DNA of 64,000 nt, from contig CASEMQ010000067.1 of NCBI GenBank assembly GCA_949289005.1, positions 128,365-192,364 on the forward strand. The letters are read 5' to 3'. A program made the translations under genes and the position numbers. The notes under the pieces are model-generated. The model did no database searches and was not told the DNA's origin. It worked only from the letters and a program-made list of their open reading frames with translations. The DNA comes from an uncultured Lentisphaeraceae bacterium (GTDB taxonomy: Bacteria > Verrucomicrobiota > Kiritimatiellia > RFP12 > DVOR01). Positions 4,634 to 60,903 of the stretch are shown one piece after another. Positions within the stretch are counted from its first letter, which is position 1. The number at the start of each line of letters is the position of its first letter.

Positions 4634-4636
4634 GCC

Positions 4637-15603: not shown

Positions 15604-15705
15604 AGACGGCGGCTTCCCTTCGGCCGGTCGCCGTGCCTTGCCGAGACATCGCCTGCCTTGTTGAAAAGTCGCACGGGATTGCCGATGACTTCCCGCCGGC
15701 CCCGT

Positions 15706-18334: not shown

Positions 18335-18527
18335 GGCGCAAAAGTATACCACAGCCACGCACCCCGCGCAGAAACCGCCAAGCCCGCCCGCCAATGTCTG
18401 GGGGAAATGTGGGCCAACCGGAAGCGCGGGCAAGGGACACCACGGTCCCCAAATCCGCGGCGAGACGGGCGGGGCGGGTTTTTGCTATTGTATGGGGCAC
18501 GTTGTCCGTTGAACCGAGAGGAAATCG

Positions 18528-20033
18528 ATGCCACCCAGGAAGCGCCGCACCATCCAAGAGAGCTTGCCTTTGGCCGACATGGCCGGGGAGGCGCCGTTGC
18601 GCCGCGAGTTGCCGCAGGATCTCGAGGCGGAGCGTGGGCTGTTGGGAGCGTTGCTGCTGGACCCGGAGCGCGTGCTGGATTTGTGCACGGAGAAGGGCGT
18701 GGTGGCGGAGGCGTTCGTGGAGCCCGGGCATCGCGCGCTGTACGCGGCGATCGCGCGCCTGGCCGCGAAAGGGCAGCCGGTGGACGGAATCACGGTGGCG
18801 AATTACCTGCAAGGCGTGGGGGAATTGGAGACGGTGGGCGGGATGCGGGCGTTGACGGCGCTGATGGAGCGGACGCCGACGAGCGCGCACGCGGGGTACT
18901 ACGCGACGTTGGTGATGGAGCAGTTTCTGCGGCGGTGCATTCTGGGGGCGGTGCGCGAGGTGGAAGAGAATGTGTACGATGCCTCGCAATCGGCCGATTA
19001 TGTGCTGGGCATCGCGGAGCAGACGATTTTGGGCATCGGGGAAGGGCGCGCGAAAGCGGGCTCGGCTGTGGACTGGAAGACGTCGGTGGGGGAGACGCTG
19101 TCGATGCTGACGCGGCAACTGGAGCACCCGGGGGAACTCTCGGGGATACCGACGGGCTTCAAGGCGTTGGACGCGCAGTTGCGCGGGTTGCACCGGGGGG
19201 AGATGATCGTGTTGGCGGCGCGCCCCTCGATGGGCAAGACATCGCTGGCGATGAACATCGCCGAGTGCGTGGCGCGCGGGCGCGACATCATGGGCATCCC
19301 GTTCAAGACGCCGGATGGGCAGGTGCGGAAGCGGACGGTGCTGGTCTTTTCGCTGGAAATGCCGCAGATGCAGCTGACCACGCGTATGCTGTGCGGCATC
19401 GCGGGGGTGTCGGCGCGCGAGGTGGAGTGCGGGCAGTTCATCAAGAAGGACGTGGTGTTGCCCCTGTTGCGATCGGCCGCCAAGGAGTTGGCGGAGACGC
19501 CGATTCTGTGCGACGACCAGGGCGGGCTGGACGTGATGGAGCTGCGGGCGCGGGCGCGCCACACGCACAAGCGCAACCCTGTGGATTTGATCGTGATCGA
19601 CTACTTGCAGTTGCTCTCGTACCGCGAGTTCGCCCAGCAGGGCCAGCAGGTGATGGTGGCAAAGATTTCCGGCGAGATCAAAGCGATGGCCAAAGAACTG
19701 AACGTGCCGGTGATCGTGCTTTCGCAACTCTCGCGCAACCCGGAGCAACGCGGCGGCGACGAGAAGCCCAAGAACTCCGATTTGCGCGACTCGGGCGCCA
19801 TCGAGCAGGACGCGGACGTGATTTTGCTGTTGCGCCGGCCGAGTTTCATGGGGAGCAAGGTGCCGGAGCACGACGACCGGTTGCTGGCCATCGTGGACGT
19901 CTCGAAAAACCGCAACGGCGCCACGGGCGAGGTGCGGCTGAACTTCGACGGCGCCACCACGCGTTTCAAGGACCGCGTGGAGACGAACCCGGATCAGATG
20001 GGCGGCGACATGGAGCCGGTGGACGCGCCGTGA
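18528..20033 (+). CDS. dnaB: Replicative DNA helicase DnaB. An alternative start at 18576 is possible.
   Basis: The N-terminal domain reads LPQDLEAERGLLGALLLDPE. Walker A ARPSMGKTSLAMNIAE and a C-terminal RecA-like domain (SRNPEQRGGDEKP...LRDSGAIEQDAD) follow. Confidence 0.85.
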   Translation: MPPRKRRTIQESLPLADMAGEAPLRRELPQDLEAERGLLGALLLDPERVLDLCTEKGVVAEAFVEPGHRALYAAIARLAAKGQPVDGITVANYLQGVGELETVGGMRALTALMERTPTSAHAGYYATLVMEQFLRRCILGAVREVEENVYDASQSADYVLGIAEQTILGIGEGRAKAGSAVDWKTSVGETLSMLTRQLEHPGELSGIPTGFKALDAQLRGLHRGEMIVLAARPSMGKTSLAMNIAECVARGRDIMGIPFKTPDGQVRKRTVLVFSLEMPQMQLTTRMLCGIAGVSAREVECGQFIKKDVVLPLLRSAAKELAETPILCDDQGGLDVMELRARARHTHKRNPVDLIVIDYLQLLSYREFAQQGQQVMVAKISGEIKAMAKELNVPVIVLSQLSRNPEQRGGDEKPKNSDLRDSGAIEQDADVILLLRRPSFMGSKVPEHDDRLLAIVDVSKNRNGATGEVRLNFDGATTRFKDRVETNPDQMGGDMEPVDAP

Positions 20034-22450: not shown

Positions 22451-23059
22451 ATGAAACGCCTCCCCCTCGCCCTCCTGAGCCTCCTCCCCACCCTCGCCCT
22501 GGCACACACCGTCGCCGTGGTGGACATGGAAGCAGCACTGGCCAACCACCCCAACACCCCCAACGACCGCAAAACGCTGGAAACAACCCTCGCCGACTAC
22601 ACCAAGGAACGCGACACTCTCCGCGCCGACCTCGAACGCCGCATGGCCGACCTCGAAAAGCAACGCGCCGAGGCCCAAAACCCCATGCTTGCCCCCGCCA
22701 AGGCCGAGGAACTCCGCAAAACCCTCGAAGGCCGCCTTCGCGAACTCCAGGAGGCCGGCCGCCGCGCCGAGGCCCAGATGGCCCAACGCTCGCAGACCCT
22801 CTCGGAAATGGAGCGCAGCTTCATCAACCGCACCTCCAAGGAAATCGAGACCCACATCGCCGCCTACGCCAAGGAAAAGGCCATCGACGTGGTTCTCTAC
22901 AAGAACGCCACCCCCTACGTGAAGCCAGACCTCGACATCACCGACGCCATCATTACGCGTTGCGGCGGCACCCCGCCCGCGAAAGACGCCGCCAAGGACG
23001 GCGAAACCCTCGCCCCGCCCGCCAAGCCCAACTTCTCCCTCGCCCCCACCGCCAAATAA
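22451..23059 (+). CDS. skp: Periplasmic chaperone Skp/OmpH
   Basis: Signal peptide MKRLPLALLSLLPTLALA, then a coiled-coil Lys/Glu/Arg-rich body typical of OmpH. It sits immediately after bamA, the canonical bamA-skp arrangement. Confidence 0.65.
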   Translation: MKRLPLALLSLLPTLALAHTVAVVDMEAALANHPNTPNDRKTLETTLADYTKERDTLRADLERRMADLEKQRAEAQNPMLAPAKAEELRKTLEGRLRELQEAGRRAEAQMAQRSQTLSEMERSFINRTSKEIETHIAAYAKEKAIDVVLYKNATPYVKPDLDITDAIITRCGGTPPAKDAAKDGETLAPPAKPNFSLAPTAK

Positions 23060-23068
23060 GGAGCGCCA

Positions 23069-23497
23069 ATGAGCCACGAACTCGAAGAGGGTCTCTCCCT
23101 CAACCTCGACTTCTCCAAAATCGCCAAAGTCGCCGCCAACATCCACGAGGACAAGGACAACGTCATCCCCGTGGCCGTCCAGGACATCGACACCAAAGAG
23201 GTCATCCTCATCGCCTACACCAACCGCCAGGCCATGGAACTGACCTTCAAGACCCGCACGCTCACCCTCTGGTCCACCTCCCGCAACGTCCTCTGGGAAA
23301 AAGGCAAGACCTCCGGGGAATCCTTCGAGGTGCTCGAGGCACGCGTCAATTGCGAGCAGAACTCCCTCGTCTACTTCGTTCGCCCCCGCCGCGGCGCCAT
23401 CTGCCACACCAAAAACAAGGCCGGCCAACCGCGCAACTGCTACTACCGCGCCATCAACCTGGACGATGGCGTCACCCTCACCAACCTCGATCCGTGA
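23069..23497 (+). CDS. hisI: Phosphoribosyl-AMP cyclohydrolase HisI (monofunctional)
   Basis: LDFSK...IPVAVQD...NCEQNSLVYFV...CHTKN are PRA-CH motifs, including the Cys metal ligands. Confidence 0.8.
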   Translation: MSHELEEGLSLNLDFSKIAKVAANIHEDKDNVIPVAVQDIDTKEVILIAYTNRQAMELTFKTRTLTLWSTSRNVLWEKGKTSGESFEVLEARVNCEQNSLVYFVRPRRGAICHTKNKAGQPRNCYYRAINLDDGVTLTNLDP

Positions 23498-23529
23498 GCG
23501 CGACCGGGAAGCGTGCCGGGCAGGTCGCG

Positions 23530-25344
23530 ATGCCCACCGCGTCCGTTCGCCTGAACACCGGGGACTGGGCCCCCGCGCGCCGTCTCCTCGGCGCCGAGGG
23601 GCTCGCCGTCATCCTCCCCTGCCACAACCTCGCCGCGACCGTCGAGGCCAACCTCGCGCGCGTGGCCGATCTCCTGCACGCACACGGCCTCCCCTTCCAG
23701 CTCATCCCCGTGGACGATGGCAGCGACGACGGCACGGCCGAGGCCATCCGCCGCGCCGCCGCCCGCCACCCCGATCTCATCCACCCCGCCTTCCTCCCCA
23801 CCAACCAGGGCAAGGGCGCCGCGCTCCTCGCCGGACTCCCCCACGTGACGTGCGGCTGGGTGTTGCTTCTGGACGGCGACCTTGACCTCGACCCCTCCGC
23901 CCTCCCCGCCTTCTGCGATGTCGCCGAGGCCACGCATGCGGACGCCATCCTGGGGAACAAGCGCCACCCCGCCTCGCAAGTGCGCTATCCCCTGCGCCGC
24001 CGTCTCTTCTCCGCCCTTTACCACGCCCTCTGCCACGCACTGCTTCGCCTAAGCGTTTCCGACACGCAGAGCGGCATGAAACTCATCCGCGCCCAAGCCC
24101 TCCGCTACGCCGCCGACCGCCTCCTCGTCAAACGGTTTGCCTTCGACCTCGAGCTCCTCGCCGTCATCCAAGGCGGCGGCTTCACCCTCGCCGAGGCACC
24201 CGTGCGCGTGGACTTTGGCCTCCGCTGGGGCTGCCTCTCGCCGGGCACGCTCTGGCGCACGCTGGTCGACACCCTGGCCATCGTCTACCGCGCCCGCGCC
24301 CTGCACTACTACGCCGGCCTCACCCCCCTGCCCCCCGCGCCCGACCCCGCGCACGGCCCGCGCTTCTCCGTCATCGTCGCCTGCCCCGGCGACAGCGTCG
24401 TCCTCCGCCGCCTCATCGCCGCCCTCGACGCGCAGACCTACCGCAACTTCGAGGTCCTCTTCCTCCCCGACCGCCTCCTCGTCCGCCCCGAGGTCCGCTT
24501 CCGCTTCCGCATCCTCGCCACCGGCGGCGTCCGACCCGCCCGCAAACGCAACCAAGGCGCGCTCGTGGCCGATGGCGACATCCTCGCCTTCATCGACGAC
24601 GATGCCTACCCGCGCCCGGACTGGCTCGCCAACGCCGCCGCGCGCTTCGCCGCCGACCCCGCCATCGACGCCCTCGGCGGCCCCGGCCTCACCCCGCCCG
24701 AAGACCCGCCCGCCGCCCAACTCTCCGGCGCCATCCTCGCCTCCCCCCTCGTCTCCGGCAACTTCCGCCACCGCTACTTCATCCAAGGCGCCCTCCGCCG
24801 CGTCGAGGACTTCCCCAGTTGCAACCTCTTCGTCCGCAAGGCCGCCTTCGATGCCATCCGCGGCTTCCGCGAAGACTTCTGGCCCGGCGAGGACACCCTC
24901 CTCTGCGCCGACCTCCAGCTCGCCGGCCGCACCCTGTGGTACGACCCCCGCGTCGTCGTCTACCACCACCGCCGCCCCGTCTTCGGCCCCCACCTCCGCC
25001 AAATCGGCCGCTATGCCCTCCACCGCGGCTACTTCGCCCGCCGCGTTGGCCTCAACTCCCGCCGTCTCTCCTACCTCCTCCCCACGCTCTTCCTCCTCGG
25101 CCTCCTCCTCGGCGCCCCGCTCGCCTGCCTCTCCCCTTGGCTCGCCGTCCCCTACCTCGCCATCGTCTCGCTCTACCTCCTCGTCACCCTCGGCGACGCC
25201 CTCCTCGAAGCCCCCACACCGCGCCAAATGCCCGCCTACTGGGCCGGCGTCATCCTCACGCACCTCTGGTACGGCGCACGTTTCCTTCATGGTCTCCTCG
25301 CCGCCAAAATGCCCAACAAAGTCCTCCCCTTCGACCACCGCTGA
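23530..25344 (+). CDS. Membrane glycosyltransferase with two tandem GT2 (family 2) domains
   Basis: Two GT-A modules are visible. The first reads ILPCHNLAATV...VDDGSDDGT...LLDGD. The second reads FSVIVACPGD...FIDDDAYPRPDWL...GEDTLL. The C-terminus is hydrophobic. Confidence 0.7.
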   Translation: MPTASVRLNTGDWAPARRLLGAEGLAVILPCHNLAATVEANLARVADLLHAHGLPFQLIPVDDGSDDGTAEAIRRAAARHPDLIHPAFLPTNQGKGAALLAGLPHVTCGWVLLLDGDLDLDPSALPAFCDVAEATHADAILGNKRHPASQVRYPLRRRLFSALYHALCHALLRLSVSDTQSGMKLIRAQALRYAADRLLVKRFAFDLELLAVIQGGGFTLAEAPVRVDFGLRWGCLSPGTLWRTLVDTLAIVYRARALHYYAGLTPLPPAPDPAHGPRFSVIVACPGDSVVLRRLIAALDAQTYRNFEVLFLPDRLLVRPEVRFRFRILATGGVRPARKRNQGALVADGDILAFIDDDAYPRPDWLANAAARFAADPAIDALGGPGLTPPEDPPAAQLSGAILASPLVSGNFRHRYFIQGALRRVEDFPSCNLFVRKAAFDAIRGFREDFWPGEDTLLCADLQLAGRTLWYDPRVVVYHHRRPVFGPHLRQIGRYALHRGYFARRVGLNSRRLSYLLPTLFLLGLLLGAPLACLSPWLAVPYLAIVSLYLLVTLGDALLEAPTPRQMPAYWAGVILTHLWYGARFLHGLLAAKMPNKVLPFDHR

Positions 25345-29870: not shown

Positions 29871-30374
29871 ATGGATACGATGAGCGTGGCCATCGGTGGG
29901 TTTGTGTTGCTCTTTGTCCTGCGGGGGGCATGGCATGGGCTTTCGGGCGAGCTGGCGCCGTTGGCGGGGTTGGTGGCGTGCGGGGGCGTGCTGTGGTTTG
30001 GCTACGCGCCGCTGCACGCGATGGTCGCGCGGCTGGCGGTGGAGCCGGGGGCGGCGGTTTTCTATTCGGCGTTGGGGATTGTCGTGATCGGGTGCGTGGC
30101 CTTTCTGCTTGTGGCCAAGTTGCTCAAGGGTGTGGTGCGGCTCATCTTGCCGCAACCCTTCGATGGCGTGTTGGGCGCGGCCATCGGCGCGGCCAAAGCC
30201 ATCCTGATCGTGAGCGTGGCCGCGGGCGTGGCGACGGTGACGCGCGAGCGCATGACCGGGTTGTTGGACGCCACGGAACGCAACCCCGTGGCCGCGGCTG
30301 CCGGCCGTTTCTGGGCGGAGCGGCTCACCGCCGCCGGCATCCCGAAGCCGGAGGAGGCCCATGCGGGGGATTGA
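29871..30374 (+). CDS. CvpA-family membrane protein
   Basis: A small polytopic protein starting MDTMSVAIGGFVLLFVLRGAWHG, matching the CvpA/colicin V production family N-terminus. Confidence 0.6.
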   Translation: MDTMSVAIGGFVLLFVLRGAWHGLSGELAPLAGLVACGGVLWFGYAPLHAMVARLAVEPGAAVFYSALGIVVIGCVAFLLVAKLLKGVVRLILPQPFDGVLGAAIGAAKAILIVSVAAGVATVTRERMTGLLDATERNPVAAAAGRFWAERLTAAGIPKPEEAHAGD

Positions 30375-32496
30375 CGCCAACGCCTTGGCGGAAATTAAGG
30401 CGCGCATCGACCTGGCCGACCTCATCGATGCCTATGGCATCGACCTGCGGCGTTCGGGGAACAACGCGAAGGCCTGTTGTCCCTTCCACCAAGAGAAGAC
30501 ACCCTCCTTCACCGTCAATTCCGAGAAGGGGTTCTACAAGTGTTTCGGGTGCGGCGAAAGCGGCGATGCCATCACCTTCGTGCAAAAAATGGAGGGGTGT
30601 ACCTTTCTGGAGGCCGTCCGCAAACTCGCCGCGCAGGCCGGGGTGAAGCTGGAGGAAGGCTACGACCCGCAGGCCGCCCTCCGCGCGCGACTCTACCAAA
30701 TCAACCAAGAGCTTGCCGCGTTCTATCGCCGCTGCCTCCTGCAAATCGCCGAGGCGGAGGAGGCGCGGGAATACCTGCGTTCGCGCGACCTGTGGGGCGA
30801 GGCGGTGGAACGCTTCGGCATCGGCTACGCGCCCGCCGTCCGCGGGGCGCTACTCGAGTGGGCCAAGCGCCACGGCTTCGCGCCGGAAGAGTTGGCCGCC
30901 GCCGGCGCATTGGCGCCCCCGCGCCGCCCGGGGGATGGTTTCTACGATCGTTTCCACGGGCGAATCACCTTCCCCGTCTGCGACCCGCAGGGGCGCGTCA
31001 TCGCCTTTTCCTGCCGGCTGTTGCGCAAATCCGAGCGCACGGGGAAATATGTCAATAGCCCCGAGACCGAGATTTTCAAGAAGGCCACCACGCTCTATGC
31101 CTACCATCTGGCGCGGCCCAACATCGCCAAGGCCACCCCGCGCCGCGCCATCGTCTGCGAGGGGCAAATCGACGTGATCCGGTGCCATCTCTGCGGGTTC
31201 CCGACGGCCGTGGCCTCGCAGGGCACCGCCTTCACCGCCGACCATGTGGCGCTCTTGCGTCGGTGCGCCGACGCCGCGGATCTGGTTTTCGACGGCGACA
31301 AGGCCGGCGTCAAGGCGGCGCTCCGCACCATGGGGCTCTTCCTGGCGGCCGGGATTCCCGTGCGCATCGTCTCCCTTCCCGAGGGCGAGGATCCCGATTC
31401 GCTCCTGCGCGGGCAAGGCGCCGAGGCATTCCGCGAATGTCTGGATGCCGCGGAGGATCCCGCGCCCTATCTGGTCCGCCGCCTGCGCGAGCAAGAGTCC
31501 GCCCCCGACGCGATGGATGCCACCATGCGCATCGCCAAGGCCGCCGTGGCCACGGTGATCGACTGCCCCGAGCCCGTCCTCACCGCGCGCTTCCTGCAAG
31601 ATGCCGCCGCCGCGCTTCACCTGCCCGTCGAGACACTCACGGATGACCTGACGACGCTTCGCTCGGATGCCGCCGAGGCGGAGCGTCGCCGCGCCGAGTT
31701 CCGCGCCCGCCAAGAGGAATCCGCCCGCCCCGCGCGCGAACCCGCGCCCGCCGCCGAACCGTCCGCGCCCATCGAGGCCGACTGGGAGGACGAGCCCGAG
31801 GCAACCGCGTTCGACTATCCCGAAGACTTCGCCGAGCCCCCGGCCGCGCCGCCGCTGAGCGCATTGGAGGCCTCGCAAAACCTCGCCGGCGCGCTCTGCG
31901 AGCTCCTGGCGCACCATTTCCACGAGTCTGAGATCATGGCGTGCCTCATCCGCCACCTACCGCCGGCCTTCGTGCACAATCCCTACGCCTCCAAACTTTA
32001 CGATTTGTCCATCGCCGCCTCGCTCGCCCAAGCCCCCACCCTGACGCCTCCCGACGACGACCCGCCCTTCCGCGCCTATCTGGCAACGCTCTTCGCCGAG
32101 CCCGACCGCTTGGCCGCCGGCGGCGAGGACGTCACGCCCCTCACCTACGCCCACGACCTTGTCCGGGCCTACTGGGTGCGCGAGTACGAGCGCCGCACGC
32201 GATTGCTCGACCCCGACTCCATCGAGGCCTTCACGCTCACCCAATCGCGCAAGCGCCTGCAATCCCTGCCATGGGAGGCCGCCGCGCCCTTCATGGACGC
32301 CCTCAACCCCAACCTCGCCGCGCCGCCACGCCCCGCCCCCGACACGCCCAAGGCGCAGGCCGGGCCAGATTTTCCGGAACCGGACACGCCGCCGCCCGAG
32401 GGCACGCCGCCGCCCGAGGAGGCACAGCTGCCCATCCCTCCGCCCGAGCCGACCTGGGAACCCGACGACGCAGGAGACTTCTATGACACCCTCTGA
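30361..32496 (+). CDS. dnaG: DNA primase DnaG with a long low-complexity Pro/Glu/Ala-rich C-terminal tail
   Basis: CHC2 zinc finger CCPFHQEKTPSFTVNSEKGFYKCFGCG. TOPRIM region VCEGQIDVIRC...VFDGDKAG. Confidence 0.85.
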   Translation: MRGIDANALAEIKARIDLADLIDAYGIDLRRSGNNAKACCPFHQEKTPSFTVNSEKGFYKCFGCGESGDAITFVQKMEGCTFLEAVRKLAAQAGVKLEEGYDPQAALRARLYQINQELAAFYRRCLLQIAEAEEAREYLRSRDLWGEAVERFGIGYAPAVRGALLEWAKRHGFAPEELAAAGALAPPRRPGDGFYDRFHGRITFPVCDPQGRVIAFSCRLLRKSERTGKYVNSPETEIFKKATTLYAYHLARPNIAKATPRRAIVCEGQIDVIRCHLCGFPTAVASQGTAFTADHVALLRRCADAADLVFDGDKAGVKAALRTMGLFLAAGIPVRIVSLPEGEDPDSLLRGQGAEAFRECLDAAEDPAPYLVRRLREQESAPDAMDATMRIAKAAVATVIDCPEPVLTARFLQDAAAALHLPVETLTDDLTTLRSDAAEAERRRAEFRARQEESARPAREPAPAAEPSAPIEADWEDEPEATAFDYPEDFAEPPAAPPLSALEASQNLAGALCELLAHHFHESEIMACLIRHLPPAFVHNPYASKLYDLSIAASLAQAPTLTPPDDDPPFRAYLATLFAEPDRLAAGGEDVTPLTYAHDLVRAYWVREYERRTRLLDPDSIEAFTLTQSRKRLQSLPWEAAAPFMDALNPNLAAPPRPAPDTPKAQAGPDFPEPDTPPPEGTPPPEEAQLPIPPPEPTWEPDDAGDFYDTL

Positions 32497-35822: not shown

Positions 35823-38372
35823 TCACGCGGTGAGGGGATTGACGTTCTCGGGCGGGCGCTTGGAGGGCTTGACAGCCTCGGTGCGGACGACCTTGCCATC
35901 CTTGATGAGCGTGCGCCATTTGAGGTGGATGGAAGAGGTGCCGATGCGCAGCTCGAAGGGTTCGTCGGGGAGCACCCATGACTGATCCTCAAGGACAATC
36001 TTGAGGTGGTCGAGCGGCACATCGAGCGCGACGGTCTTGGTCTCGCCGGGCTTCAGGTGGACACGCTTGAAGCCGCGCAACATCTGGTCGAACCAATAGA
36101 TGGGCGTCTTGGTGTAGGAGACGTAGAGCTGCACCACCTCGTCGCCGGCGACCTTGCCGGTGTTGGTGACGGGGATGTGGACGCGCCAACCGGCGGGCAC
36201 GGGCGCGGGGTCGCGGAAGCACAGGCGATCCCACAACGTCGCCTCGCCGGGCGCGGTAAGGGGCTCGATTGTGGGCTTGCCGATGGCAAAGGTGGTGTAG
36301 GAAAGCCCAAAACCGAAGGGCCAAAGCGCGCCGGCGTTGTAGGAGCCGTTCTTGAGTTCGGGCTCGTAGTTGGACTTCGGCTTCGCAGGGAAGTTGAAGG
36401 GGATCTGCCCAGCGGATTTAAGCCAAGTGCCGTTGGTCTTGCCACCGGGATTGTAGCGCCCCAGGAGCGCCTCGGCCACGGCCGTGCCGCCGTGGCCGCA
36501 AAGCAACCCGCAGGAAAGAATGGCCGGGGTGTTGCGGGCCGCCCAGTTGATGCTCGGCGGGCGGCCATGCATCAGCACGAGCACGGTGGGCGTGCCGGTG
36601 GCCTGGACGGCCTCGAGCAGTTCCTCTTGCCGGCCGGGGAGGTTGAGGCTCGTGCGCGTGTGGCTCTCGCCGGAAGTGCGGCCATTGTCGCCCAACACCA
36701 CAATCGCGACGTCGGCGGACTTGGCAAGGGCGACGGCCTTGGCCTGCTCGTCGCGCTCTTTCTTGGTGATGGGCACGGGCACCAACTCGCTGTCAGGCCA
36801 GCCGGGATTGACGTGGTCGCATCCCTTGGCGTAGACGACCTCCGCGCCCGTCCCGGCGAGCGCCCGCTCAAGCCCCTTGCGCACCGTGACAAAGTCGTAG
36901 TCCGTGGGCCCGTAACGGTCGGGCCGGTAACACCCGGTGTCGGCGTTGGGGCCGATGACGGCGACGCGCTTGAGCTTTTTCGCGTCGAGCGGCAGGAGGT
37001 CGCCCTCGTTCTTGAGGAGCACGAGCGCCTCGCGGGCGACCTGCAACGCCACACGCGCGGCCTCCTCCGTGCCGACAAGCGCGTTGGCGGATTTGGGGTC
37101 GGCCACGTAGGGCCGGTCAAACATGCCGCGCATAAACTTCACGCGCAGCACGTCGCGCACCATCGCGTCCACATCCTCCGGCGCCAGCGAGCCATCGTCC
37201 AGCGAGGCATTGATGGCGCGCGCCACGGCATCGGGCGGGGAGAAGGTCGTCCAGACGTTGAGCCCGGCCTTGATGCGCAGATTGTGCGCCTCTTTCTGGT
37301 CGACGGCCATGCGGTGCAACGTGGCGAGCCGCTCGACCGCGTGACTGTCGGAGACGACATAGCCCTCAAAGCCAAGCTCGCCGCGCAAGCGCTCCTTGAG
37401 CAAATGCGCGCTCGCGGCCACCGGCATGCCATTGACATCGTTGTAGGCGCACATCACGCCGAGCGGATGCGCCTCGGTGAAGACTCGCCGGAAGGGATAG
37501 AAATGAATCGCCTCGAAGGTCTGCGCCGTGATGTGCGGATCCGTCCGCGAATCATAGCCGCGCGCACCCTTGTTCTCGCCGTAGCCCACGTAATGTTTGG
37601 GGCTGGAGATGGCACCACCTTCTTGAATGCCCAGGCACAACGCCTTGCCGATCTCGGCCACCAGGAACGGATCCTCGGCGATGGTCCCCTCCCAACGACC
37701 CCAACGTTGGTCACGCGCCACGTCCAAAATCGGCGCATAGACATTCGTGTAGCCCACCGCCCGCGCCTCACGCCCCGTGACGCGCCCCATCTCGCGGATC
37801 AGCTCCGGGTTCCACGTCATCCCCTGCGAATGGGGCATGGGGAAAGAGGTGCCGTGCCGCAACGACGCGCCGTTGATCCCTTCGTTCGTGAAGTCCACGG
37901 GAATGCCCAGCCGCGTCTGCTCGATGAAAAACCGCTGCGTGTTGTTCACGTAATGCGCGTTCCGCTCGGGCGTGTCGCTCACCTCCCTGTCGCCGCGGTG
38001 GCGCCACCCCGCGCCCTGCTCGTCGATGTTCGCCACGCCATCCTTCCACACGCGCTTGCTCTTCCACGCCTCCGTGGGATACTTGTCCTTCAACACCGCG
38101 CGGTAACCATAGAGCGTGCAGAGCTGCATCACCTTCTCGGCCTGGGTCATCCGCCCCAGCAAATCTTCCACCCGCGCTTCCACCCCCGCCGAAGGATCCT
38201 CGTAGACATCCATCTCCCCGTTCTTGTTCAGGTCGATCCAGCCCTCATGGTAAATCCCCGGCATCGCCTCAAACGGATAAGGATAGGGATTGCCCTTCAA
38301 CGCCGTGTCGGCTCCCGCGGCCAAAACCACGGAACCCAACAAGCCCGACAACAGAACCAATTCAGTCTTCAT
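35823..38372 (-). CDS. bglX: GH3 beta-glucosidase (BglX-like) with a C-terminal extension and a signal peptide. The true start is internal at 38372.
   Basis: Signal peptide MKTELVLLSGLLGSVVLAAGA. GH3 motifs KHYVGYG and GFEGYVVSDS, the latter carrying the catalytic Asp. Confidence 0.85.
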   Translation of the reverse strand: MKTELVLLSGLLGSVVLAAGADTALKGNPYPYPFEAMPGIYHEGWIDLNKNGEMDVYEDPSAGVEARVEDLLGRMTQAEKVMQLCTLYGYRAVLKDKYPTEAWKSKRVWKDGVANIDEQGAGWRHRGDREVSDTPERNAHYVNNTQRFFIEQTRLGIPVDFTNEGINGASLRHGTSFPMPHSQGMTWNPELIREMGRVTGREARAVGYTNVYAPILDVARDQRWGRWEGTIAEDPFLVAEIGKALCLGIQEGGAISSPKHYVGYGENKGARGYDSRTDPHITAQTFEAIHFYPFRRVFTEAHPLGVMCAYNDVNGMPVAASAHLLKERLRGELGFEGYVVSDSHAVERLATLHRMAVDQKEAHNLRIKAGLNVWTTFSPPDAVARAINASLDDGSLAPEDVDAMVRDVLRVKFMRGMFDRPYVADPKSANALVGTEEAARVALQVAREALVLLKNEGDLLPLDAKKLKRVAVIGPNADTGCYRPDRYGPTDYDFVTVRKGLERALAGTGAEVVYAKGCDHVNPGWPDSELVPVPITKKERDEQAKAVALAKSADVAIVVLGDNGRTSGESHTRTSLNLPGRQEELLEAVQATGTPTVLVLMHGRPPSINWAARNTPAILSCGLLCGHGGTAVAEALLGRYNPGGKTNGTWLKSAGQIPFNFPAKPKSNYEPELKNGSYNAGALWPFGFGLSYTTFAIGKPTIEPLTAPGEATLWDRLCFRDPAPVPAGWRVHIPVTNTGKVAGDEVVQLYVSYTKTPIYWFDQMLRGFKRVHLKPGETKTVALDVPLDHLKIVLEDQSWVLPDEPFELRIGTSSIHLKWRTLIKDGKVVRTEAVKPSKRPPENVNPLTA

Positions 38373-38597
38373 GCTCCAATCATACACCATTCCTCCGCCC
38401 CCCGCCACACAAATCCCTTCCCCCACCCGTCCCTGCGTCCCCCGCAACGCACCCGGGAGAGGCGGTCATCCTTCACCGCCATTCGCACCGATGACACCTC
38501 CGGCGCCCGGGAAAACGGAGACGAATCCGGGTTTTTGCGAAGTTCGCGGCGCAACGGCTCCGTGAAACGTTCCGCACCCTTTAGGTTGGGATGTCTC

Positions 38598-38770
38598 CGG
38601 TCGGCGAAGATGCGGCGTACCTCGGGGTGAGAGACGGCGTGTCTCACCCCGAGGTACGCCGCATCCCGGAAAACGACCCCGCTCCCTGATTGAAAGGGCG
38701 GTTCTGAGGCTCCTCCGGCCTCACCCGCCTTCAACAGGTTTTCAACAGATTTTGCAAAGTTATCGACAGG
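38598..38770 (-). repeat. Copy C of the interspersed repeat in reverse orientation. It contains a perfect 24-bp-stem palindrome at 38609..38665.
   Basis: gatgcggcgtacctcggggtgaga [gacggcgtg] tctcaccccgaggtacgccgcatc. The conserved block ttcaacaggttttcaacagattttgcaaagttatcgacagg is at 38730..38770. Confidence 0.8.
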
Positions 38771-38904
38771 GATGACGAACGGTTCCAGTGGTATGCCGGG
38801 AACGGTGGGACGACGGGCACGTGAAGGGCCCCGGCGGACGCGGCGGAAAGGCATAACCCAACAAGAAAATGACACTGCGCCTCCTGTGACTCTTGGGCGA
38901 AGCC

Positions 38905-38941
38905 CCAAAAAAAGGCACGGCTGCCGCCGTGCCTTTTTCGG
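38905..38941. terminator. Rho-independent terminator downstream of hup on the minus strand
   Basis: aaaaaaaggcacggctgccgccgtgcctttttcg is a GC stem with a T-run on the coding strand of hup. Confidence 0.5.
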
Positions 38942-38956
38942 GTTGCCGTGTGGGGC

Positions 38957-39286
38957 TTAGCCAATCACCTTGTCTTTGATAATCTTGGAGACGGAGAACT
39001 TGATGGTCTCCTTGGCGGGGTATTCGATCTTCTCGGTGGGCTTGCGTGGGTTGACGCCGATGCGCGCGGCGCGCTGGGTGACGGTGAACTTGCCGATGCC
39101 GGGAAGGGCGAAGACCTTGTTCTTCTTGACCTGGGCGGCAATGAGATCGATGAGGGCATCGTAGACTTGGCCGACGGCGGCTTTGGTGCTGCCGGTGGCC
39201 TCGGCGAGGGCCTCGCGGATCTCGTCCTTGGTCAAAGGTTTGGGGGTGGTTTTGGCGGGGGCCTTGGTGGCTTTCTTGGTGGGCAT
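38957..39286 (-). CDS. hup: HU/IHF-family nucleoid protein with an N-terminal Lys/Ala/Pro-rich tail
   Basis: GFGKF-type motif ALPGIGKFTVTQRAARIGVNPRKPTEKIEYPAKETIKFSVSKIIKD. It is preceded by an unusually AT-rich region. Confidence 0.85.
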   Translation of the reverse strand: MPTKKATKAPAKTTPKPLTKDEIREALAEATGSTKAAVGQVYDALIDLIAAQVKKNKVFALPGIGKFTVTQRAARIGVNPRKPTEKIEYPAKETIKFSVSKIIKDKVIG

Positions 39287-40580: not shown

Positions 40581-40671
40581 GGTTCTCTCCTTGTTCAGTG
40601 CCGACTAGTTTAGCAAAAACGCGCGTCCCGGGAGGCGGGGCGCGCGTCGCATACGGACCAAGCAATCATGC

Positions 40672-50255: not shown

Positions 50256-53200
50256 TCAAAATGGCGCCGGCGATTGCGCTTGGGGTCTGAGTAGATGTCA
50301 TCGCCGCGCAAATCGTAATTCACCGCGTTGCGACCCCAGAGCGTCTCAATAGCCGCGAGGCAATCGGGCGTTGGGTCGATGGCCCAGGTGGCGTCGGGCG
50401 AGAGAAGCGCCCGTCGGCCGCCGGGCAAATCGAGCATGAGGGTGACGGGATAGCCGCCCGGATGCGCTGCGAAGAGGTCACGCAAGCGCCCCAGTTTCTC
50501 CGCGGAAGGCTTGTCGTTGTCCACGCGGCAGAGGATACGCAGGCCCTTGGCGAAAAGCGCGGGAGCCTCGGCGAGGGGATGGATCTCGGCGGCAAAGATG
50601 ACAGGGTCGCGGCCTTCCTCAAACTTGGCCTCGCCGCAGATGAGCACAGGCGCGTCCTGCACGAGCGCCTCTTTGTTGCGTTCGTAGGTGTCATTGAAGG
50701 CCAACACCTTGACCGAGCCCGTGCCGTCCTCCACCGTCAGATCCGCCCAAGGGCGCTTCGTGGTTTTGGAGAGTGCCACGCGCACGTTCGAAAGCAACCC
50801 CGCCACGCGCACGGCATCGCGATTGTGCTTGACGCGCGGGAAGGCCTCGGCCGAGACGGTGCGGAAGGAGCGCACGAGCGTGCGATAGCGGTCGACGGGG
50901 TGCCCGGTGAGGTAGACGCCCAGCAGGTCGCGCTCGTCCTGGAGGCGCTCCTTCTCGGGACGATCGGGCGCATCGGGCAGATCCTCGCCGAGACCGCCAC
51001 CGGCGTCCTCGCCGCCCATCAGGTCGAAGAGCGAGCCCTGGCCGGAGGCTCCGTCGCGGTCGGCCTCGGCCACGCGCGAGAAGGCGAAGTCGATGCCCGC
51101 CAGGAGCCGCCCCTGCGTCATACCCTCGAAGCACGCCATCGCGCCGCTGCGGATGAGCGCTTCGACGGCGCGCTTGGTGACCAGGAGTTTGCCATCGTTC
51201 GCGGCCTTGGCCTCGGCGCCGCACAACCGCTTGCAGAAGTCCACCAACCCCTTGTAAGGGCCGTTCTTCTCGCGCTCGGCCACGATCTGGTCGCCCGCGG
51301 CCTCGCCGACGTTGCGGATGGCGCCGAGGCCGAATCGCACGGCGTCCTTGCCGGCGGGCGCGAAGTGGCACCGCGAGGCATTGACGTCCGGCGGCAACAC
51401 GCGCAACCCCATGTCCGCCGCCGCGGCGACGAGCGCCGGCATCTTGTCGAAGTTGCCGATTTCCGAGGAAATCTGCGCGCACATGAAGTCCGCTGGATAG
51501 TGTGCCTTGAGGTAGCCCGTCTGGTAGGCGATGTAGGCGTAGCAGACAGAGTGGGACTTGTTGAAAGCATAGGAGGCGAAGGCCGTCCAGTCGCCCCAGA
51601 TTTTCTCGGCGCGTTTGCGGGCGTCTTCCTCGCCTTGGCAGGCCTCCATGTAGGCGGGATTTTTGAGACAGCCATCGAGGAATTTGACGCGGAGTTTCTC
51701 CATCGTCTCCAGCTGCTTTTTGCCCATGGCCTTGCGGAGCGTGTCGGATTCGCCGCGCGTGAAGCCAGCCAGAAGGCGCGAGAGCAACATCACTTGCTCC
51801 TGGTAGACCGTCACGCCGTAGGTATCCTTGAGATACTGCTCCATGAGCGGATGGTCGTAGGCGACCTTTTCCTCGCCGTGTTTGCGGCGGATAAAGGAGG
51901 GGATGTAATCCATCGGGCCCGGGCGATAGAGGGCGTTCATGGCCACAAGATCCTCGAAGCGGTTGGGGCGCAGGGAACGCAGGTGCGCCTTCATGCCATC
52001 GGATTCAAACTGGAAGAGTCCGTCCGTCTCGCCGCGGGAAAAGAGCGCGAAGGTTTCCTTGTCATCGATGGGGATGGCGTCCATGTCCACGTCGAGCCCA
52101 TGCGACTCCTTGATGGATTCCAGGCAGGCCTTGAGCACCGAGAGCGTCTTCAGTCCCAGGAAGTCCATCTTGAGCAGGCCGATCGGTTCCACGAAGTGCC
52201 CGTCGTACTGCGTGGTCATCAGGCTTTCGCCCGCCGTGGGCATGATGGGGATGGTCTCCATCAAGGGGTCGCGGCTGATGATGATGCCGCAAGCGTGCAC
52301 GCCGATGTTGCGTGTGGTGCCCTCCAGACGGATGGCCAGCTCCAGGATGCGCCGTTGCATCGGGTCGTCGCCGTCGAGCACCTCCGCCAGTTTGGGATTG
52401 CCCTTGAGCGCCTTGGCGAAGGTGATTTTCGGTGCGTCCGGCACCAACGCCGCCAACGCGTTTGCGTCCGCGAGCGGATAGTCCAACACGCGGCAAACGT
52501 CCTTGATCGCGCTCTTGGGCGCCATGATGCCAAACGTGGCAATGTGCCCCACGTGGTCGGCGCCATACTTCTGCGTCACCCACTCCAGCACGCGCCCACG
52601 CCCCAGATCGTCGAAGTCCACGTCGATATCCGGCATGGAAATGCGATCCGGGTTCAGGAAACGCTCGAACAGCAGATCGTAGCGGATGGGGTCGATGTCC
52701 GTGATCTTCAGGCAATAGGCCACCGCGCTGCCCGCCGCGCTGCCACGCCCAGGCCCCACGAGCACGCCCATCCCGCGCGCGGCCGCGATGTAATCCTGCA
52801 CAATCAGAAAGTACCCCGGGAAACCCATCTGCTTGATGGTGTTCAGCTCAAAGGCGATGCGCTCCTTGATTTCCGGCGTCAGCGTCTCCCCCGGCCAACG
52901 CTTTGCCGCGCCCTCCCATGTCAAGTGCGCCAGATAGTCGCTCTCCAACTTGATGCGCAACACCTTGTCGTAACCATCGAACTTGTCGTAGCGCTCGAAC
53001 TCCTCGCGCAACGCCGCCTCCGGGAAACACGCCGCGTAATCCGCCTCCGTGCCGAAGGCCTCCGGAATCGGGAACTTCGGCATGATCGGGTCGGAGTTCA
53101 GCCCATATTCCTCCACCTTGTCGGCCACGGCCACGGTATTGTGAATGGCCTCGCGGCAACTCTCCGGCAATGCCGCGCACATTTCCTCATAGCTCTTCAG

Positions 53201-53995
53201 CCACTCCTGCTGCGTGTAGCGCAGCCGCTTCTCGTCCGTCAGCTTCTTCCCTGTGCTCACGCAGAGCAACACATCGTGCGCCTCGCCATCCTCCCTGTTC
53301 AGGAAGTGGACGTCGTTCGTGGCGATGACCGGAATGCCCAGGCGCTTCCCCAACTCCAATGTCCCGCGGATTACCGCCATTTGCCGATCGTACAGCTCCT
53401 TGCGCTCCTCCTCGCCGAAACCCCGCACTTCCGACTTGTGCAGCATCACCTCCAGATAGTAATCTTCGCCAAAGAGCGCCCGATACCACTGCGCCTCCGC
53501 CGCGGCCTCCTCCATTCGCCCTTCCGCCAACAACTGCGGCACAATCCCCGCCACGCACGCCGACGAGCAAATCAACCCCTCGTGATACCGCTCCAGCAAC
53601 TCCCGGTCGATCCTCGGCCGCCCGTAAAACCCCTCGATGTGCGCCAACGAGATCAGCCGCAACAGATTGTGATACCCCGTCAGATTCTTCGCCAGCAAAA
53701 TCAAATGGTTGCCGCTGCGCTCCGTGCGGTCATGCCGCCCCAAACGCGCCACATACGCCTCGCACCCCAAAATCGGCTTGATCCCCTCCTTGCGGCACGC
53801 ATCGTAAAACGCCTTCAACCCATACAGACACCCATGGTCCGTGATCGCGCACGCCCCCATCCCCAGCGCCTTCGCACGCTTCACCAATGCCGGCACCTGA
53901 CACGCACCATCCAACAACGAATAGCTCGTGTGAACATGCAAATGCACAAAAGGCGACTTCCCCGCCTCGGCACCCTCTTCCTTCGTCTCGCTCAT
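50252..53995 (-). CDS. dnaE: DNA polymerase III alpha subunit DnaE. The true start is internal at 53995; the 194 codons upstream in the ORF are Gly/Arg-rich junk.
   Basis: PHP domain FVHLHVHTSYSLLDGA, polymerase core and OB-fold. The protein is about 1248 aa. Confidence 0.9.
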   Translation of the reverse strand: MSETKEEGAEAGKSPFVHLHVHTSYSLLDGACQVPALVKRAKALGMGACAITDHGCLYGLKAFYDACRKEGIKPILGCEAYVARLGRHDRTERSGNHLILLAKNLTGYHNLLRLISLAHIEGFYGRPRIDRELLERYHEGLICSSACVAGIVPQLLAEGRMEEAAAEAQWYRALFGEDYYLEVMLHKSEVRGFGEEERKELYDRQMAVIRGTLELGKRLGIPVIATNDVHFLNREDGEAHDVLLCVSTGKKLTDEKRLRYTQQEWLKSYEEMCAALPESCREAIHNTVAVADKVEEYGLNSDPIMPKFPIPEAFGTEADYAACFPEAALREEFERYDKFDGYDKVLRIKLESDYLAHLTWEGAAKRWPGETLTPEIKERIAFELNTIKQMGFPGYFLIVQDYIAAARGMGVLVGPGRGSAAGSAVAYCLKITDIDPIRYDLLFERFLNPDRISMPDIDVDFDDLGRGRVLEWVTQKYGADHVGHIATFGIMAPKSAIKDVCRVLDYPLADANALAALVPDAPKITFAKALKGNPKLAEVLDGDDPMQRRILELAIRLEGTTRNIGVHACGIIISRDPLMETIPIMPTAGESLMTTQYDGHFVEPIGLLKMDFLGLKTLSVLKACLESIKESHGLDVDMDAIPIDDKETFALFSRGETDGLFQFESDGMKAHLRSLRPNRFEDLVAMNALYRPGPMDYIPSFIRRKHGEEKVAYDHPLMEQYLKDTYGVTVYQEQVMLLSRLLAGFTRGESDTLRKAMGKKQLETMEKLRVKFLDGCLKNPAYMEACQGEEDARKRAEKIWGDWTAFASYAFNKSHSVCYAYIAYQTGYLKAHYPADFMCAQISSEIGNFDKMPALVAAAADMGLRVLPPDVNASRCHFAPAGKDAVRFGLGAIRNVGEAAGDQIVAEREKNGPYKGLVDFCKRLCGAEAKAANDGKLLVTKRAVEALIRSGAMACFEGMTQGRLLAGIDFAFSRVAEADRDGASGQGSLFDLMGGEDAGGGLGEDLPDAPDRPEKERLQDERDLLGVYLTGHPVDRYRTLVRSFRTVSAEAFPRVKHNRDAVRVAGLLSNVRVALSKTTKRPWADLTVEDGTGSVKVLAFNDTYERNKEALVQDAPVLICGEAKFEEGRDPVIFAAEIHPLAEAPALFAKGLRILCRVDNDKPSAEKLGRLRDLFAAHPGGYPVTLMLDLPGGRRALLSPDATWAIDPTPDCLAAIETLWGRNAVNYDLRGDDIYSDPKRNRRRHFD

Positions 53996-54057
53996 GCCCC
54001 GCATTATAACAAATGTGCTCCGGCACGGCGCCCGCCGCGATCGGCAACCCCTCGCGG

Positions 54058-54792
54058 TCACCAAGCGCGACGAACGGAACGAAAGGTACGCCCCAGCACC
54101 TCCAATGCGTCGGCGCGAAGCGCCTGGTTGGGCAGGCGGAGCGCGCGTCGGTCGGCCTCGGTGAGCGCGTCTTCGCGAAAACGCAGGAAGATTTCCGGGT
54201 CTGGGCCGTAGACCTTGTCGCCCACCACGGGAAAGCCAAGCGAATGGAGGCTGGCGCGGATTTGATGCGTGCGCCCGGTCACCAACTCGGCTTGCAGCAG
54301 CGAGGTGCCCGCCCACGGCCCCTCGCCCAAGCGCTCGAACCATGTCGCCGCGCCCCGATCCGGCGCGAGCGGCGGCAAGTCGGGCGTGAGCGCGGCCTCC
54401 TCCAGGCGGCGCATGGAATAGACCGGCGGCGCGTTGACCCGGCAGACCCGCCCCGACGCGCAAAGCCGTCCCTCCGGGAACCGCCCCTCCACCACCACCA
54501 GATAACGCTTGCGTTTGGGTGCCTTGGCCAAACGCGCCGCCATCCGCGGATCCTTCGCCACCAACACCACCCCGCACGTCTCCCGATCCAGTCGCGAAAT
54601 CAGATGGATCGTGTTCCCCGGGCGATAGAGGCGGAGCAAGCGATCGAGCGTATGCAGGCGATAACTCCCGCTGGCGTGGACCGGCAAATCGGCCGGCTTG
54701 TCCACCACCAACATCCGCGCATCCTCGTAAAGCCAGCGGATGTCCGTATTGACGGGCGGGTCAAGGCGCACGCAACGCCTCGCTTGGGTCAA
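54058..54792 (-). CDS. RluA-family pseudouridine synthase
   Basis: Catalytic motif HLISRLDRETCGVVLVAK and LVTGRTHQIRASL. Confidence 0.8.
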   Translation of the reverse strand: MTQARRCVRLDPPVNTDIRWLYEDARMLVVDKPADLPVHASGSYRLHTLDRLLRLYRPGNTIHLISRLDRETCGVVLVAKDPRMAARLAKAPKRKRYLVVVEGRFPEGRLCASGRVCRVNAPPVYSMRRLEEAALTPDLPPLAPDRGAATWFERLGEGPWAGTSLLQAELVTGRTHQIRASLHSLGFPVVGDKVYGPDPEIFLRFREDALTEADRRALRLPNQALRADALEVLGRTFRSVRRAW

Positions 54793-60515: not shown

Positions 60516-60611
60516 GCGAACCTCCAATCGGTTGTGAACCATACGAATGACAATAGGCTAACATATCACCCCCCCCCGTCAAGCACTTATTCGCAGACGC
60601 CCAGCCTGGCG

Positions 60612-60790
60612 GCGGCAAAAACGATGCCAGCCTTGCCGCGACTGTCGATAACTTTGCGAAATCTGTTGAAAACCTGTTGAATCCGGGCGGAGCCCGGGAT
60701 GCCTCAGACCCCGCCTTTCAATCTATACGCGAGGTCATTCTCCGAGACACGGCGCATCCCGGGTTGAGACACGCCGCATCCCACCCCGGG
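60612..60790 (+). repeat. Copy D of the interspersed repeat in forward orientation. It lies in a divergent region between the PEP-CTERM gene and the parE-like gene.
   Basis: Conserved block gtcgataactttgcgaaatctgttgaaaacctgttgaa. The tandem direct repeat gagacacggcgcatccc / gagacacgccgcatccc is present. Confidence 0.7.
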
Positions 60791-60903
60791 CCACGCGCGG
60801 GCCCGATGGCCCCACCGCCCGCGCTTTCGGCAGGTGGGCGCGGCATGCCCATGTCACATCCGCACGACTTTGGTAAACTGTGCGGCAATTTTGAGGAGAT
60901 TTT

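Follow-up and report, generated by a model that had tools for sequence, protein, structure and literature searches.

A stretch of 64,000 nucleotides (nt) from an uncultured Lentisphaeraceae bacterium (GenBank assembly GCA_949289005.1, contig CASEMQ010000067.1, positions 128,365 to 192,364 of the forward strand), here called the window, carries four copies of an intergenic element of 161 to 163 nt. The element is a previously undescribed, lineage-specific composite intergenic repeat in Kiritimatiellota. One of the copies, copy C, contains a perfect 57-nt hairpin that had been singled out in an earlier reading made from the letters and a list of open reading frames (the sequence-only reading). 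The hairpin itself is not conserved among the copies. The conserved features are a 61-nt module of palindromic units held in 22-nt phase, the block that follows it (block II), and a terminal array of four 9-mers that resemble DnaA boxes.

The copies were found by repeat search, multiple alignment and an nhmmer profile, which gave four in the window and no others. The visible part of the genome is about 81 kb, made up of the 64-kb window and about 17 kb of flanks. The copies and their parts are as follows.

Copy A, 3121-3283, minus strand, 163 nt: palindromic units 3223-3283, block II 3196-3225, block III 3160-3195, block IV 3121-3159.
Copy B, 15709-15869, plus strand, 161 nt: palindromic units 15709-15769, block II 15767-15796, block III 15797-15830, block IV 15831-15869.
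Copy C, 38607-38768, plus strand, 162 nt, with the four parts given in the next four lines.
Copy C palindromic module, 38607-38667, plus strand: three 17-nt units centred at 38615, 38637 and 38659, with pattern matches at 38607, 38629 and 38651.
Copy C block II, 38665-38694, plus strand: conserved 30 nt, CCCGGAAAACGACCCCGCTCCCTGATTGAA, overlapping the last 3 nt of unit 3.
Copy C block III, 38695-38729, plus strand: variable and GC-rich.
Copy C block IV, 38730-38768, plus strand: A+T-rich, with four head-to-tail DnaA-box-like 9-mers.
Perfect hairpin of copy C, 38609-38665, no strand assigned: arms 38609-38632 and 38642-38665, 24 base pairs (bp), 9-nt loop, read directly and supported by folding.
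Copy D, 60643-60804, minus strand, 162 nt: palindromic units 60744-60804, block II 60717-60746, block III 60682-60716, block IV 60643-60681.

Read in a common orientation, each copy has the same order of parts: the 61-nt palindromic module, block II, block III and block IV. Block II reads CCCGRAAAAYGACCCCGCTCCCTGATTGAA across the copies, copy D being more diverged. Block III, 34-36 nt long, is GC-rich and variable; copies B, C and D each have a copy-specific stem in it, and that of copy A is C-rich and stemless. Block IV follows the consensus TTCAACAGGTTTTCRACAGATTnnnnAAAGTTATCGACA, in which 35 of the 39 aligned positions are invariant across the copies. In the alignment the right end of the element is sharp, immediately after ...ATCGACA (GTTATCGACA), as is the left end, at the first palindromic unit. 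The nucleotides that adjoin the two ends differ in all four copies.

The hairpin of copy C

The hairpin consists of GATGCGGCGTACCTCGGGGTGAGA (38609-38632), the loop gacggcgtg and TCTCACCCCGAGGTACGCCGCATC (38642-38665), and its arms are complementary at 24 of 24 positions. The repeat search lengthens the arms to 28 nt each (38609-38636 and 38638-38665), with 96% complementarity. Folded as DNA, the hairpin has an energy of -36.3 kcal/mol, as compared to -14.1 +/- 2.1 kcal/mol for 200 dinucleotide shuffles (z = -10.6), none of which equalled it. Folded as RNA, the plus strand gives -58.9 kcal/mol (z = -9.8) and the minus strand -56.0 kcal/mol (z = -9.0). Of ten further strains of the species, eight have the identical hairpin. 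It is real, lies far beyond chance and is not an isolated structure, since it follows from the arrangement of the repeated units described below.

The sequence-only reading had described a flawless 57-nt hairpin with 24-bp arms and had held that it was not a simple terminator; both statements are correct. An intrinsic terminator is a GC-rich stem-loop followed by a T-tract. The bases 3' of the hairpin are CCGGAAAAC on one strand and TTCGCC on the other, no T-tract follows it on either strand, and a scan of 38300-39000 returned no terminator-like site.

Two strain assemblies, L113 and L115 (3331-3960 in each), show dense substitutions, mostly towards G, and a duplication or insertion of about 25-45 nt at the copy C locus. 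These anomalies sit exactly in and 5' of the hairpin, where the other eight strains are clean, and they look like base-calling or assembly errors provoked by the hairpin, not biological hypervariation. That two assemblies are garbled precisely there, in a region prone to sequencing error, could be taken to mean that the hairpin arose as a chance local inverted duplication or as an assembly artefact. This origin can be set aside with near certainty: the same perfect hairpin is found in the window and in eight independent assemblies, which already refute it, no shuffled sequence folds equally well, and the units from which the arms are built are common to the three other copies.

Three palindromic units in fixed phase

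When the four modules are laid in register from the last unit, a single geometry is seen. Every copy has a 61-nt module of three units whose ...CG-S-CG... cores are spaced exactly 22 nt. A unit consists of 8 nt, a central C or G and another 8 nt, and is followed by a 5-nt spacer that reads ACCCC, AACCC or the complement GGGGT. The half-sites, read inward, are GGGATGCG, GAGACACG, GAGGTACG, GAGGCACG, GAGAGACG and similar sequences, all matching GRGRYRCG. Each unit is a degenerate 17-bp palindrome, and most differences between its halves are transitions.

The copies differ in how the units face one another. The spacers of copy C are GGGGT and ACCCC, and its units 1 and 3 mirror each other across the centre of unit 2; thus, the whole module is palindromic. 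Copy B has the same palindromic layout with mismatches. A hairpin in copy A is made by units 2 and 3, with 12 perfect pairs (18 counting G.T), and in copy D units 2 and 3 are direct repeats that form essentially no DNA hairpin. Unit orientation alternates in A, B and C, and does not in D. The DNA-fold z-scores are -10.6 for C, -3.9 for A, -3.5 for B and -2.0 for D.

These folds, which the sequence-only reading had proposed for all four copies, give a strong DNA hairpin in C and an unremarkable result in D, and they bear out its description of imperfect or direct-repeat versions of the arms elsewhere (a 12-bp stem in A, mismatches in B, direct repeats in D). The rearranged palindromes are in-register variants of one fixed geometry. 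Because copy D keeps that geometry, with its 22-nt phasing, without a DNA hairpin, a cruciform recognition site cannot be the common feature of the family, and the suggestion that the hairpin or cruciform is itself a recognition site is weakened.

The DnaA-box-like array of block IV

Block IV can be written as four head-to-tail 9-mers, (C)CTTCAACA gg TTTTCAACA ga TTTTGCAAA g TTATCGACA, separated by spacers of 2, 2 and 1 nt; the first 9-mer of copy C is cCTTCAACA. Compared to the DnaA-box consensus TTATCCACA, which may not be the consensus of this phylum, TTATCGACA matches at 8 of 9 positions and TTTTCAACA is a variant matching at 7 of 9. The window contains 9 occurrences of the pattern TTWTCVACA, where 0.9 would be expected, and 8 of the 9 are inside the four elements. 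The window has no canonical TTATCCACA box. It also has no match, at up to 3 mismatches, to the 16-bp palindrome parS (TGTTTCACGTGAAACA), by which a chromosomal parS was rejected. A lone DnaA-box-like 9-mer outside the elements, TTTTCAACA on the minus strand at 15659-15667, lies about 45 nt beyond the left edge of copy B.

A collection of genomes was scanned with the block IV 19-mer TTCAACAGGTTTTCRACAG. Matches were obtained at 93 loci or more in many phyla, mostly in DnaA-box clusters or coding sequence, and the full element was found at none of these loci. About one quarter of the matches fall in dense clusters of DnaA-box-like 9-mers. The 19-mer lies beside dnaA and/or dnaN genes at five tested loci (L036, L065, L068, L076 and L086), and on a planctomycete contig (L041) its neighbours are an A+T-rich tract and canonical TATCCACA boxes. 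The tandem 9+2 arrangement of TTTTCAACA appears, from these neighbourhoods, to be used elsewhere in what look like replication origins. A literature search for the box sequences returned primer lists only.

Distribution among strains and relatives

Strain contigs were taken from one series of European Nucleotide Archive (ENA) and Logan metagenome assemblies. Of the other strains, two carry copy B, ten copy C and ten copy D. No copy was found in about 100 kb of sequence from relatives with 81-86% ParE identity, or at three closer loci. In a sister lineage whose ParE is 94% identical, homology upstream of parE ends at ...GGCCCGGGG, which is the left edge of copy D, and unrelated sequence follows. 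The absence outside the species and this boundary indicate that the family is young or lineage-restricted, as is usual for interspersed repeats. Empty sites were sought in relatives reached through ParE and GH3 homologues; synteny was broken in all of them, and the left boundary of copy D was the only one confirmed. The ParE-like protein of the window (60904-62727) has its closest named relatives in metagenome-assembled genomes of Kiritimatiellia.

Wider searches gave no further copies. A walk outward from the window through flanking proteins added about 17 kb of sequence and no new copy. Two scans of Joint Genome Institute (JGI) metagenomes gave no match and then one chance match in coding sequence (L128), two scans of viral contigs gave none, and the matches in plasmids (PLSDB) and phages were no more than chance ones within coding regions. 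A protein query made by concatenating the element's translations in six frames, aimed at spurious reading frames over other copies, scored nothing.

Three side observations were made on these contigs. In the sister lineage, upstream of parE (L130:120-200), the sequence TGTTGATAACTTTG is identical at 13 of 14 positions to the reverse complement of the block IV end; beside it stands another kind of hairpin or repeat, GGCGGCTGATC...GATCAGCCGCC, of which there is a third copy; this may be a separate repeat family. In strains L123 and L126 the sequence is wholly changed from about 45 nt beyond block IV of copy D towards the PEP-CTERM gene (window 60515-60640), and L123 also has a changed patch between copy D and parE (window 60850-60900); these are recombination breakpoints close to copy D. 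Finally, five short-read Logan contigs terminate inside the element, in the module or in block IV (L096, L097 and L098 at their ends, L117 and L133 at their starts), from which it follows that the repeat breaks de Bruijn assemblies of this species.

Changes in the palindromes between strains

Polymorphism among strains is concentrated in the middle of the element. Block III has polymorphic sites at 4 of 35 positions in copy C and 6 of 35 in copy D (11-17%), block II at none of 27, and block IV at 0-2 of 39. Conserved ends with a variable middle would be the pattern expected of cis-acting sites.

The sequence-only reading had proposed that the arms evolve by strand slippage or gene conversion. 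Changes other than point mutations are indeed seen, in the copy B arm, the copy C block III stem and the copy A spacer. The left arm of copy B is GCGGCGCGCCTCGGGACG in the window and GCGGCGTACCTCGGGGTG in strain L094; the two are separated by four transitions, clustered together. The L094 arm is identical over 18 nt to the left arm of copy C and is uncomplementary to its own right arm at GGGGTG/CAACCC. Since the L094 arm matches copy C and not its own partner, it points to conversion between copies.

In block III of copy C the window has AGGGCGG...GGCCTCACCCGCC and every other strain has AAGGCGG...GGCCCCGCCTGCC, four substitutions apart. Two of the four turn GCCCCG into GCCTCA and thereby complete a 6-bp helix with a pre-existing TGAGGC. 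Clustered, complementary multi-base changes are the signature of template switching at quasipalindromes (PMC7202029), and the double change in block III appears to be such a signature. In copy A, the variant L133:1-40, compared with window 3236-3250, has the spacer between units 2 and 3 changed from AACCC to GGGGT with unchanged flanks, a change that is apparently an in-place flip. In the same variant, which lies at a contig end, the half-site beside the flipped spacer has changed from GAGGTACG to GAGATACG.

Genomic context

The genes that flank the elements are ordinary chromosomal housekeeping genes, unrelated to one another. Copy A lies between divergent genes, for a metallophosphoesterase with a twin-arginine translocation (TAT) signal and for a secreted protein of no assigned family; copy B between convergent genes, for an esterase and hisA; copy C between same-strand genes for a GH3 glycosidase and HU, to both of which it is opposite; and copy D between divergent genes, for a PEP-CTERM protein and parE. 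Promoter-like motifs of the genes beside the elements, read as sigma-70-like or extended -10-like (for example, TTGCAA-17-CATAAT before HU, and TGnTAnnnT before several others), sit between the element and the start codon, and terminator-like hairpins sit between the gene ends and the element. A scan for promoter- or terminator-like sites inside the copies found none except one weak match in B, and comparison with the motifs that precede the genes likewise gave no promoter within the element. Promoters and terminators are here motif readings, not mapped sites. Because the flanking motifs place the copies outside transcripts, the elements would occupy non-transcribed spacer DNA.

About 28 putative genes of the window were compared with Pfam, and the precomputed domain calls on the strain contigs cover about 10 more. 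The window is unusually rich in replication and repair genes: sbcD/sbcC (5897-9855), dnaB (18528-20033), dnaG (30361-32496), dnaE (about 50462-54211), parE (60904-62727) and HU (38957-39286), with parC just past the right edge. Its GC skew shows no clear origin-like switch.

Other features of the region were noted in passing. At 2978-2990, 18470-18485 and 40600-40625, upstream of genes whose starts are 2970, 18528/18433 and 40580, the motif TTTTTGCTAnnnT is found 20-45 nt ahead of the start codon; it reads as an extended -10 element (TGnTAnnnT). In several genes, those for GH3 and the metallophosphoesterase among them, no more than 6-10 nt separate a -10-like hexamer from the ATG, which points to very short leaders. 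At 3395-5854 a metallophosphoesterase gene with the TAT signal is followed by an adjacent paralogue, and DNA similarity between the two at a distance of 1218-1221 nt indicates a tandem gene duplication. Three direct repeats spaced by 354 nt at 23747-24483, inside the open reading frame 22960-25344, suggest tandem protein repeats of 118 residues. On a strain contig (L118:6153-7433, compared with L119) an extra AAA_14/DUF4143 ATPase gene stands between a sulfite/nitrite reductase-like gene and ilvC; it has no counterpart in the lineage of the window and is a strain-specific insertion.

Origin and role of the element

On balance we lean towards an account in which the elements are protein-bound DNA sites on an element that has spread within the lineage, and in which the hairpins have been reshaped by template switching and gene conversion. 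We infer that proteins bind the element as duplex or single-stranded DNA, and that it functions, or once spread, in this form. A dimeric protein would sit on the phased palindromes, whose spacing of 22 bp corresponds to two helical turns, and DnaA or a similar factor would probably occupy the terminal array. The units are nearly their own reverse complements, and because of this a unit together with its 5-nt spacer could be flipped or overwritten in place with its length kept. The likely agents are intrastrand template switching at the quasi-palindromes and gene conversion between copies. Copy C would then be an end-point of homogenisation, in which units 1 and 3 have become exact mirror images and the module contains a perfect 57-nt palindrome, and copy D an alternative outcome, with units as direct repeats. 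The hairpin or cruciform would be a by-product of these processes and not the feature under selection.

Several observations weigh against this account. The element lacks terminal inverted repeats, its left end (GGGATGCGG...) being unrelated to its right end (...GTTATCGACA), and neither a target-site duplication nor conserved flanking nucleotides are found across the flanks of the four copies. No transposase, RAYT (REP-associated tyrosine transposase, where REP is repetitive extragenic palindrome), recombinase or Y1/HUH domain was found among the window genes searched against Pfam, and no transposase, recombinase or Y1/HUH domain in the domain calls on the strain contigs or among the called genes of the flanks. 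Copies B, C and D show no presence/absence polymorphism, being fixed in every contig that spans them intact, and mobility is therefore not demonstrated. The count of four copies rests on the 81 kb of visible genome. Both TTATCGACA and TTTTCAACA deviate from the DnaA-box consensus at position 6, which is normally conserved, and the strongest box has a G there. Finally, the isolated stem polymorphisms among strains are wobble-compatible on the forward strand only, in 5 cases of 5 (a chance of about 0.03 if the strands were equally likely), a pattern that hints at a constraint on single strands or RNA and is not explained by pure duplex binding.

The wobble pattern bears on a structured RNA, read from the forward strand through the hairpin module into the box array, which might be a small RNA family or an element for stability or processing, its long stem being a helix that is processed or protects. 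In forward-strand RNA a helix of 18-28 bp forms at the same place in all four copies (z -2.7 to -9.8), the direct repeats of copy D pair through 7 G.U pairs, and a double change in the central stem replaces A-U by G-C between strains; copy D has no fold on the reverse strand (z = 0.0). Such an RNA is nevertheless improbable. Rfam gave no match over the whole window at gathering score, and a permissive scan returned only models of miRNA precursors, at 22-26 bits against thresholds of 53-91. The copies have no sigma-70-like promoter or terminator apart from the weak match in B, lie outside the inferred transcripts and are inconsistently oriented to the neighbouring genes. Copy A lacks the central stem, and the RNAalifold consensus of the 3' two-thirds (blocks II-IV) is a negligible -4.2 kcal/mol, its covariation term not favouring a shared structure. 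Of the processed RNA stem put forward in the sequence-only reading, folding of all four copies on one strand with G.U pairs stands, and both their position outside inferred transcription units and the lack of an Rfam family tell against it. The same bias towards one strand, together with GC-rich quasi-palindromes that are regularly spaced and alternate in orientation as in bacterial interspersed mosaic elements (BIMEs; PMC2817692) and inverted dimers that form long hairpins as REPINs do (PMC3116915), would also fit a genuine REP/REPIN family mobilised by a RAYT, a Y1 HUH transposase encoded elsewhere in the genome, copy C being a REPIN-like inverted dimer. The unit even has an 11-12-nt core, GGATGCGGCGT(G), in common with an E. 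coli K-12 REP of the Y type (L132, NC_000913.3: 5665, 25791 and 39155; window 60774-60785), found by direct pattern search. This match, of 12 nt at most, is possibly a coincidence between GC-rich palindromes, and BLAST of the unit against E. coli genomes gave no reportable match. The tag that defines the two REP superfamilies, a conserved unpaired GTAG or CGTC tetranucleotide at the end of the palindrome (PMC3733652), is absent from all 12 units, which are flanked by ACCCC, AACCC, GGGGT or non-conserved sequence. The units never stand alone and always belong to the 162-nt composite with its two non-palindromic conserved blocks. A RAYT-driven family is accordingly a poor prospect, and the REP/RAYT suggestion of the sequence-only reading, with the RAYT/IS200-like/HUH gene that it looked to, found no backing in the scanned window genes or the flanks.

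A third alternative overlaps the favoured account and is not exclusive of it. The elements may be host-functional protein-binding modules and not selfish repeats, with a DnaA-box-like array and three phased palindromic operators, acting in DnaA titration or regulation (as datA, DARS and the Bacillus clusters do) or in an architectural or centromere-like role. Low-affinity DnaA sites in E. coli oriC are said, from work by Rozgaja and colleagues in 2011, to be arranged head-to-tail with spacing such as the 1-2 nt between the 9-mers of block IV. Block IV is almost invariant among strains as well as among copies, its 19-mer recurs in DnaA-box clusters by dnaA/dnaN and beside the canonical boxes of the planctomycete contig, the 22-bp phasing is strictly maintained, the copies lie in apparently non-transcribed spacers, and replication genes (dnaB, dnaG, dnaE, parE, HU and sbcCD) abound in the window. 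Against this are the lack of both a canonical TTATCCACA box and parS in the window, the G at position 6 of the strongest box, and the absence of the element in close relatives, even upstream of orthologous parE, which is unexpected for an essential regulatory site. A host-functional module is a minor, though real, possibility. The replication or partition protein that the sequence-only reading had named as a possible binder of the hairpin gains some plausibility from the DnaA-box-like array, which lies at the opposite end of the element. A narrower and rather more doubtful form of the idea would make the 162-nt element a dispersed, self-contained initiator-binding cassette. One end would assemble a DnaA oligomer, from a nucleating DnaA box and three weaker head-to-tail sites, and the other would offer operators at two-turn spacing to a second, dimeric protein. 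If the cassette existed, many copies across a Kiritimatiellia chromosome would serve to titrate the initiator, to recycle it or to mark domains related to replication, and a repeat family would be carrying replication-control sites, which has not been described for repeats of the REP/BIME type.

With protein-bound sites and reshaped hairpins as the favoured account, the element would provide a clear case of a perfect hairpin arising from a phased quasi-palindrome array through template switching and gene conversion. It has a practical side as well, since it breaks short-read assemblies and seems to provoke G-rich sequencing errors that could pass for hypervariation. Binding of DnaA to the box array, or of a specific protein to the palindromes, would, if confirmed, tie interspersed repeats to replication control or chromosome organisation and would give a handle on DnaA-box usage in the Planctomycetes-Verrucomicrobia-Chlamydiae (PVC) group.

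Comparison with known repeats and sites

Several known classes were considered and rejected. A miniature transposable element with inverted repeats (MITE) fails on terminal inverted repeats and on target-site duplication. A palindrome-associated transposable element (PATE) derived from IS200/IS605, which would carry subterminal hairpins at both of its ends and insert 3' of a fixed tetra- or pentanucleotide, does not fit, because the hairpin module is at one end only and no fixed target nucleotides stand next to the four copies. An iteron-type origin was discarded since the units are palindromic and not direct iterons, there is no rep gene, and the four chromosomal copies lie among housekeeping genes. 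Pho-box, IHF, parS, dif, attC, CIRCE, Ter and oriT-nic sites are poor matches by eye.

Transposon ends can carry sites for host factors, such as the DnaA box in the outside end of Tn5/IS50, and phased transposase sites occur in the ends of Tn7 and Mu. The element is like non-autonomous transposons with asymmetric ends in its conserved ends and variable middle, its sharp boundaries, a terminal ...ACA-3' (here within a DnaA-box-like 9-mer), phased repeated sites near both ends, and its occurrence in either orientation in intergenic DNA. It differs in lacking inverted terminal repeats, a target duplication, a transposase among the genes searched, and insertion polymorphism in the strains checked.

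DnaA-box clusters (datA, DARS1/2 and those of B. subtilis; PMC2533591) and iteron origins share with the element 9-mers in the same orientation with spacers of about 2 bp, an A+T-rich setting beside repeats phased at 22 bp, an intergenic location, and a few copies over tens of kb. The boxes of the element depart from TTWTNCACA at position 6, and its four near-identical composite copies resemble no described datA, DARS or origin.

Template-switch hotspots (PMC7202029) show the same clustered, complementary changes that perfect or invert a hairpin as are seen in the copy B arm, the copy C central stem and the copy A spacer. They are a mutational process and not a family of elements, and would explain how the hairpin originated, not why the repeat exists.

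REP, BIME and REPIN sequences of Proteobacteria come closest. REPs are palindromes of 20-40 bp, and a RAYT gene typically has REPs on either side of it. REP/BIME sequences are extragenic, GC-rich imperfect palindromes, regularly spaced and combined with other motifs (PMC2817692, PMC3333891, PMC3116915). REPs usually number more than 100 copies per genome, and the palindromes of BIMEs are regularly spaced, alternate in orientation and are joined by linker motifs (PMC2817692); REPINs are inverted dimers that form long hairpins (PMC3116915). The element likewise has short palindromes, its 17-nt units, in inverted dimers, the outer units of B and C mirroring each other in a palindrome of 57-61 nt. 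It also has exact 22-nt spacing with 5-nt linkers, and alternation in all copies except D. It is extragenic, a mosaic and lineage-specific, as they are, and some BIMEs carry a site for a host protein such as IHF. It departs from them in its 17-nt units, always three in number and in rigid 22-nt phase, in having no tag and no visible RAYT, in the constant joining of its units to the same non-palindromic part of about 100 nt that ends in the DnaA-box-like array, and in its host, which belongs to the PVC phylum Kiritimatiellota. It was not filed as a REP because it has no tag, its units never occur outside the 162-nt composite and no RAYT gene is visible. Among known systems, the element most resembles the REP/BIME class, and is of the general REP/BIME or non-autonomous-element kind.

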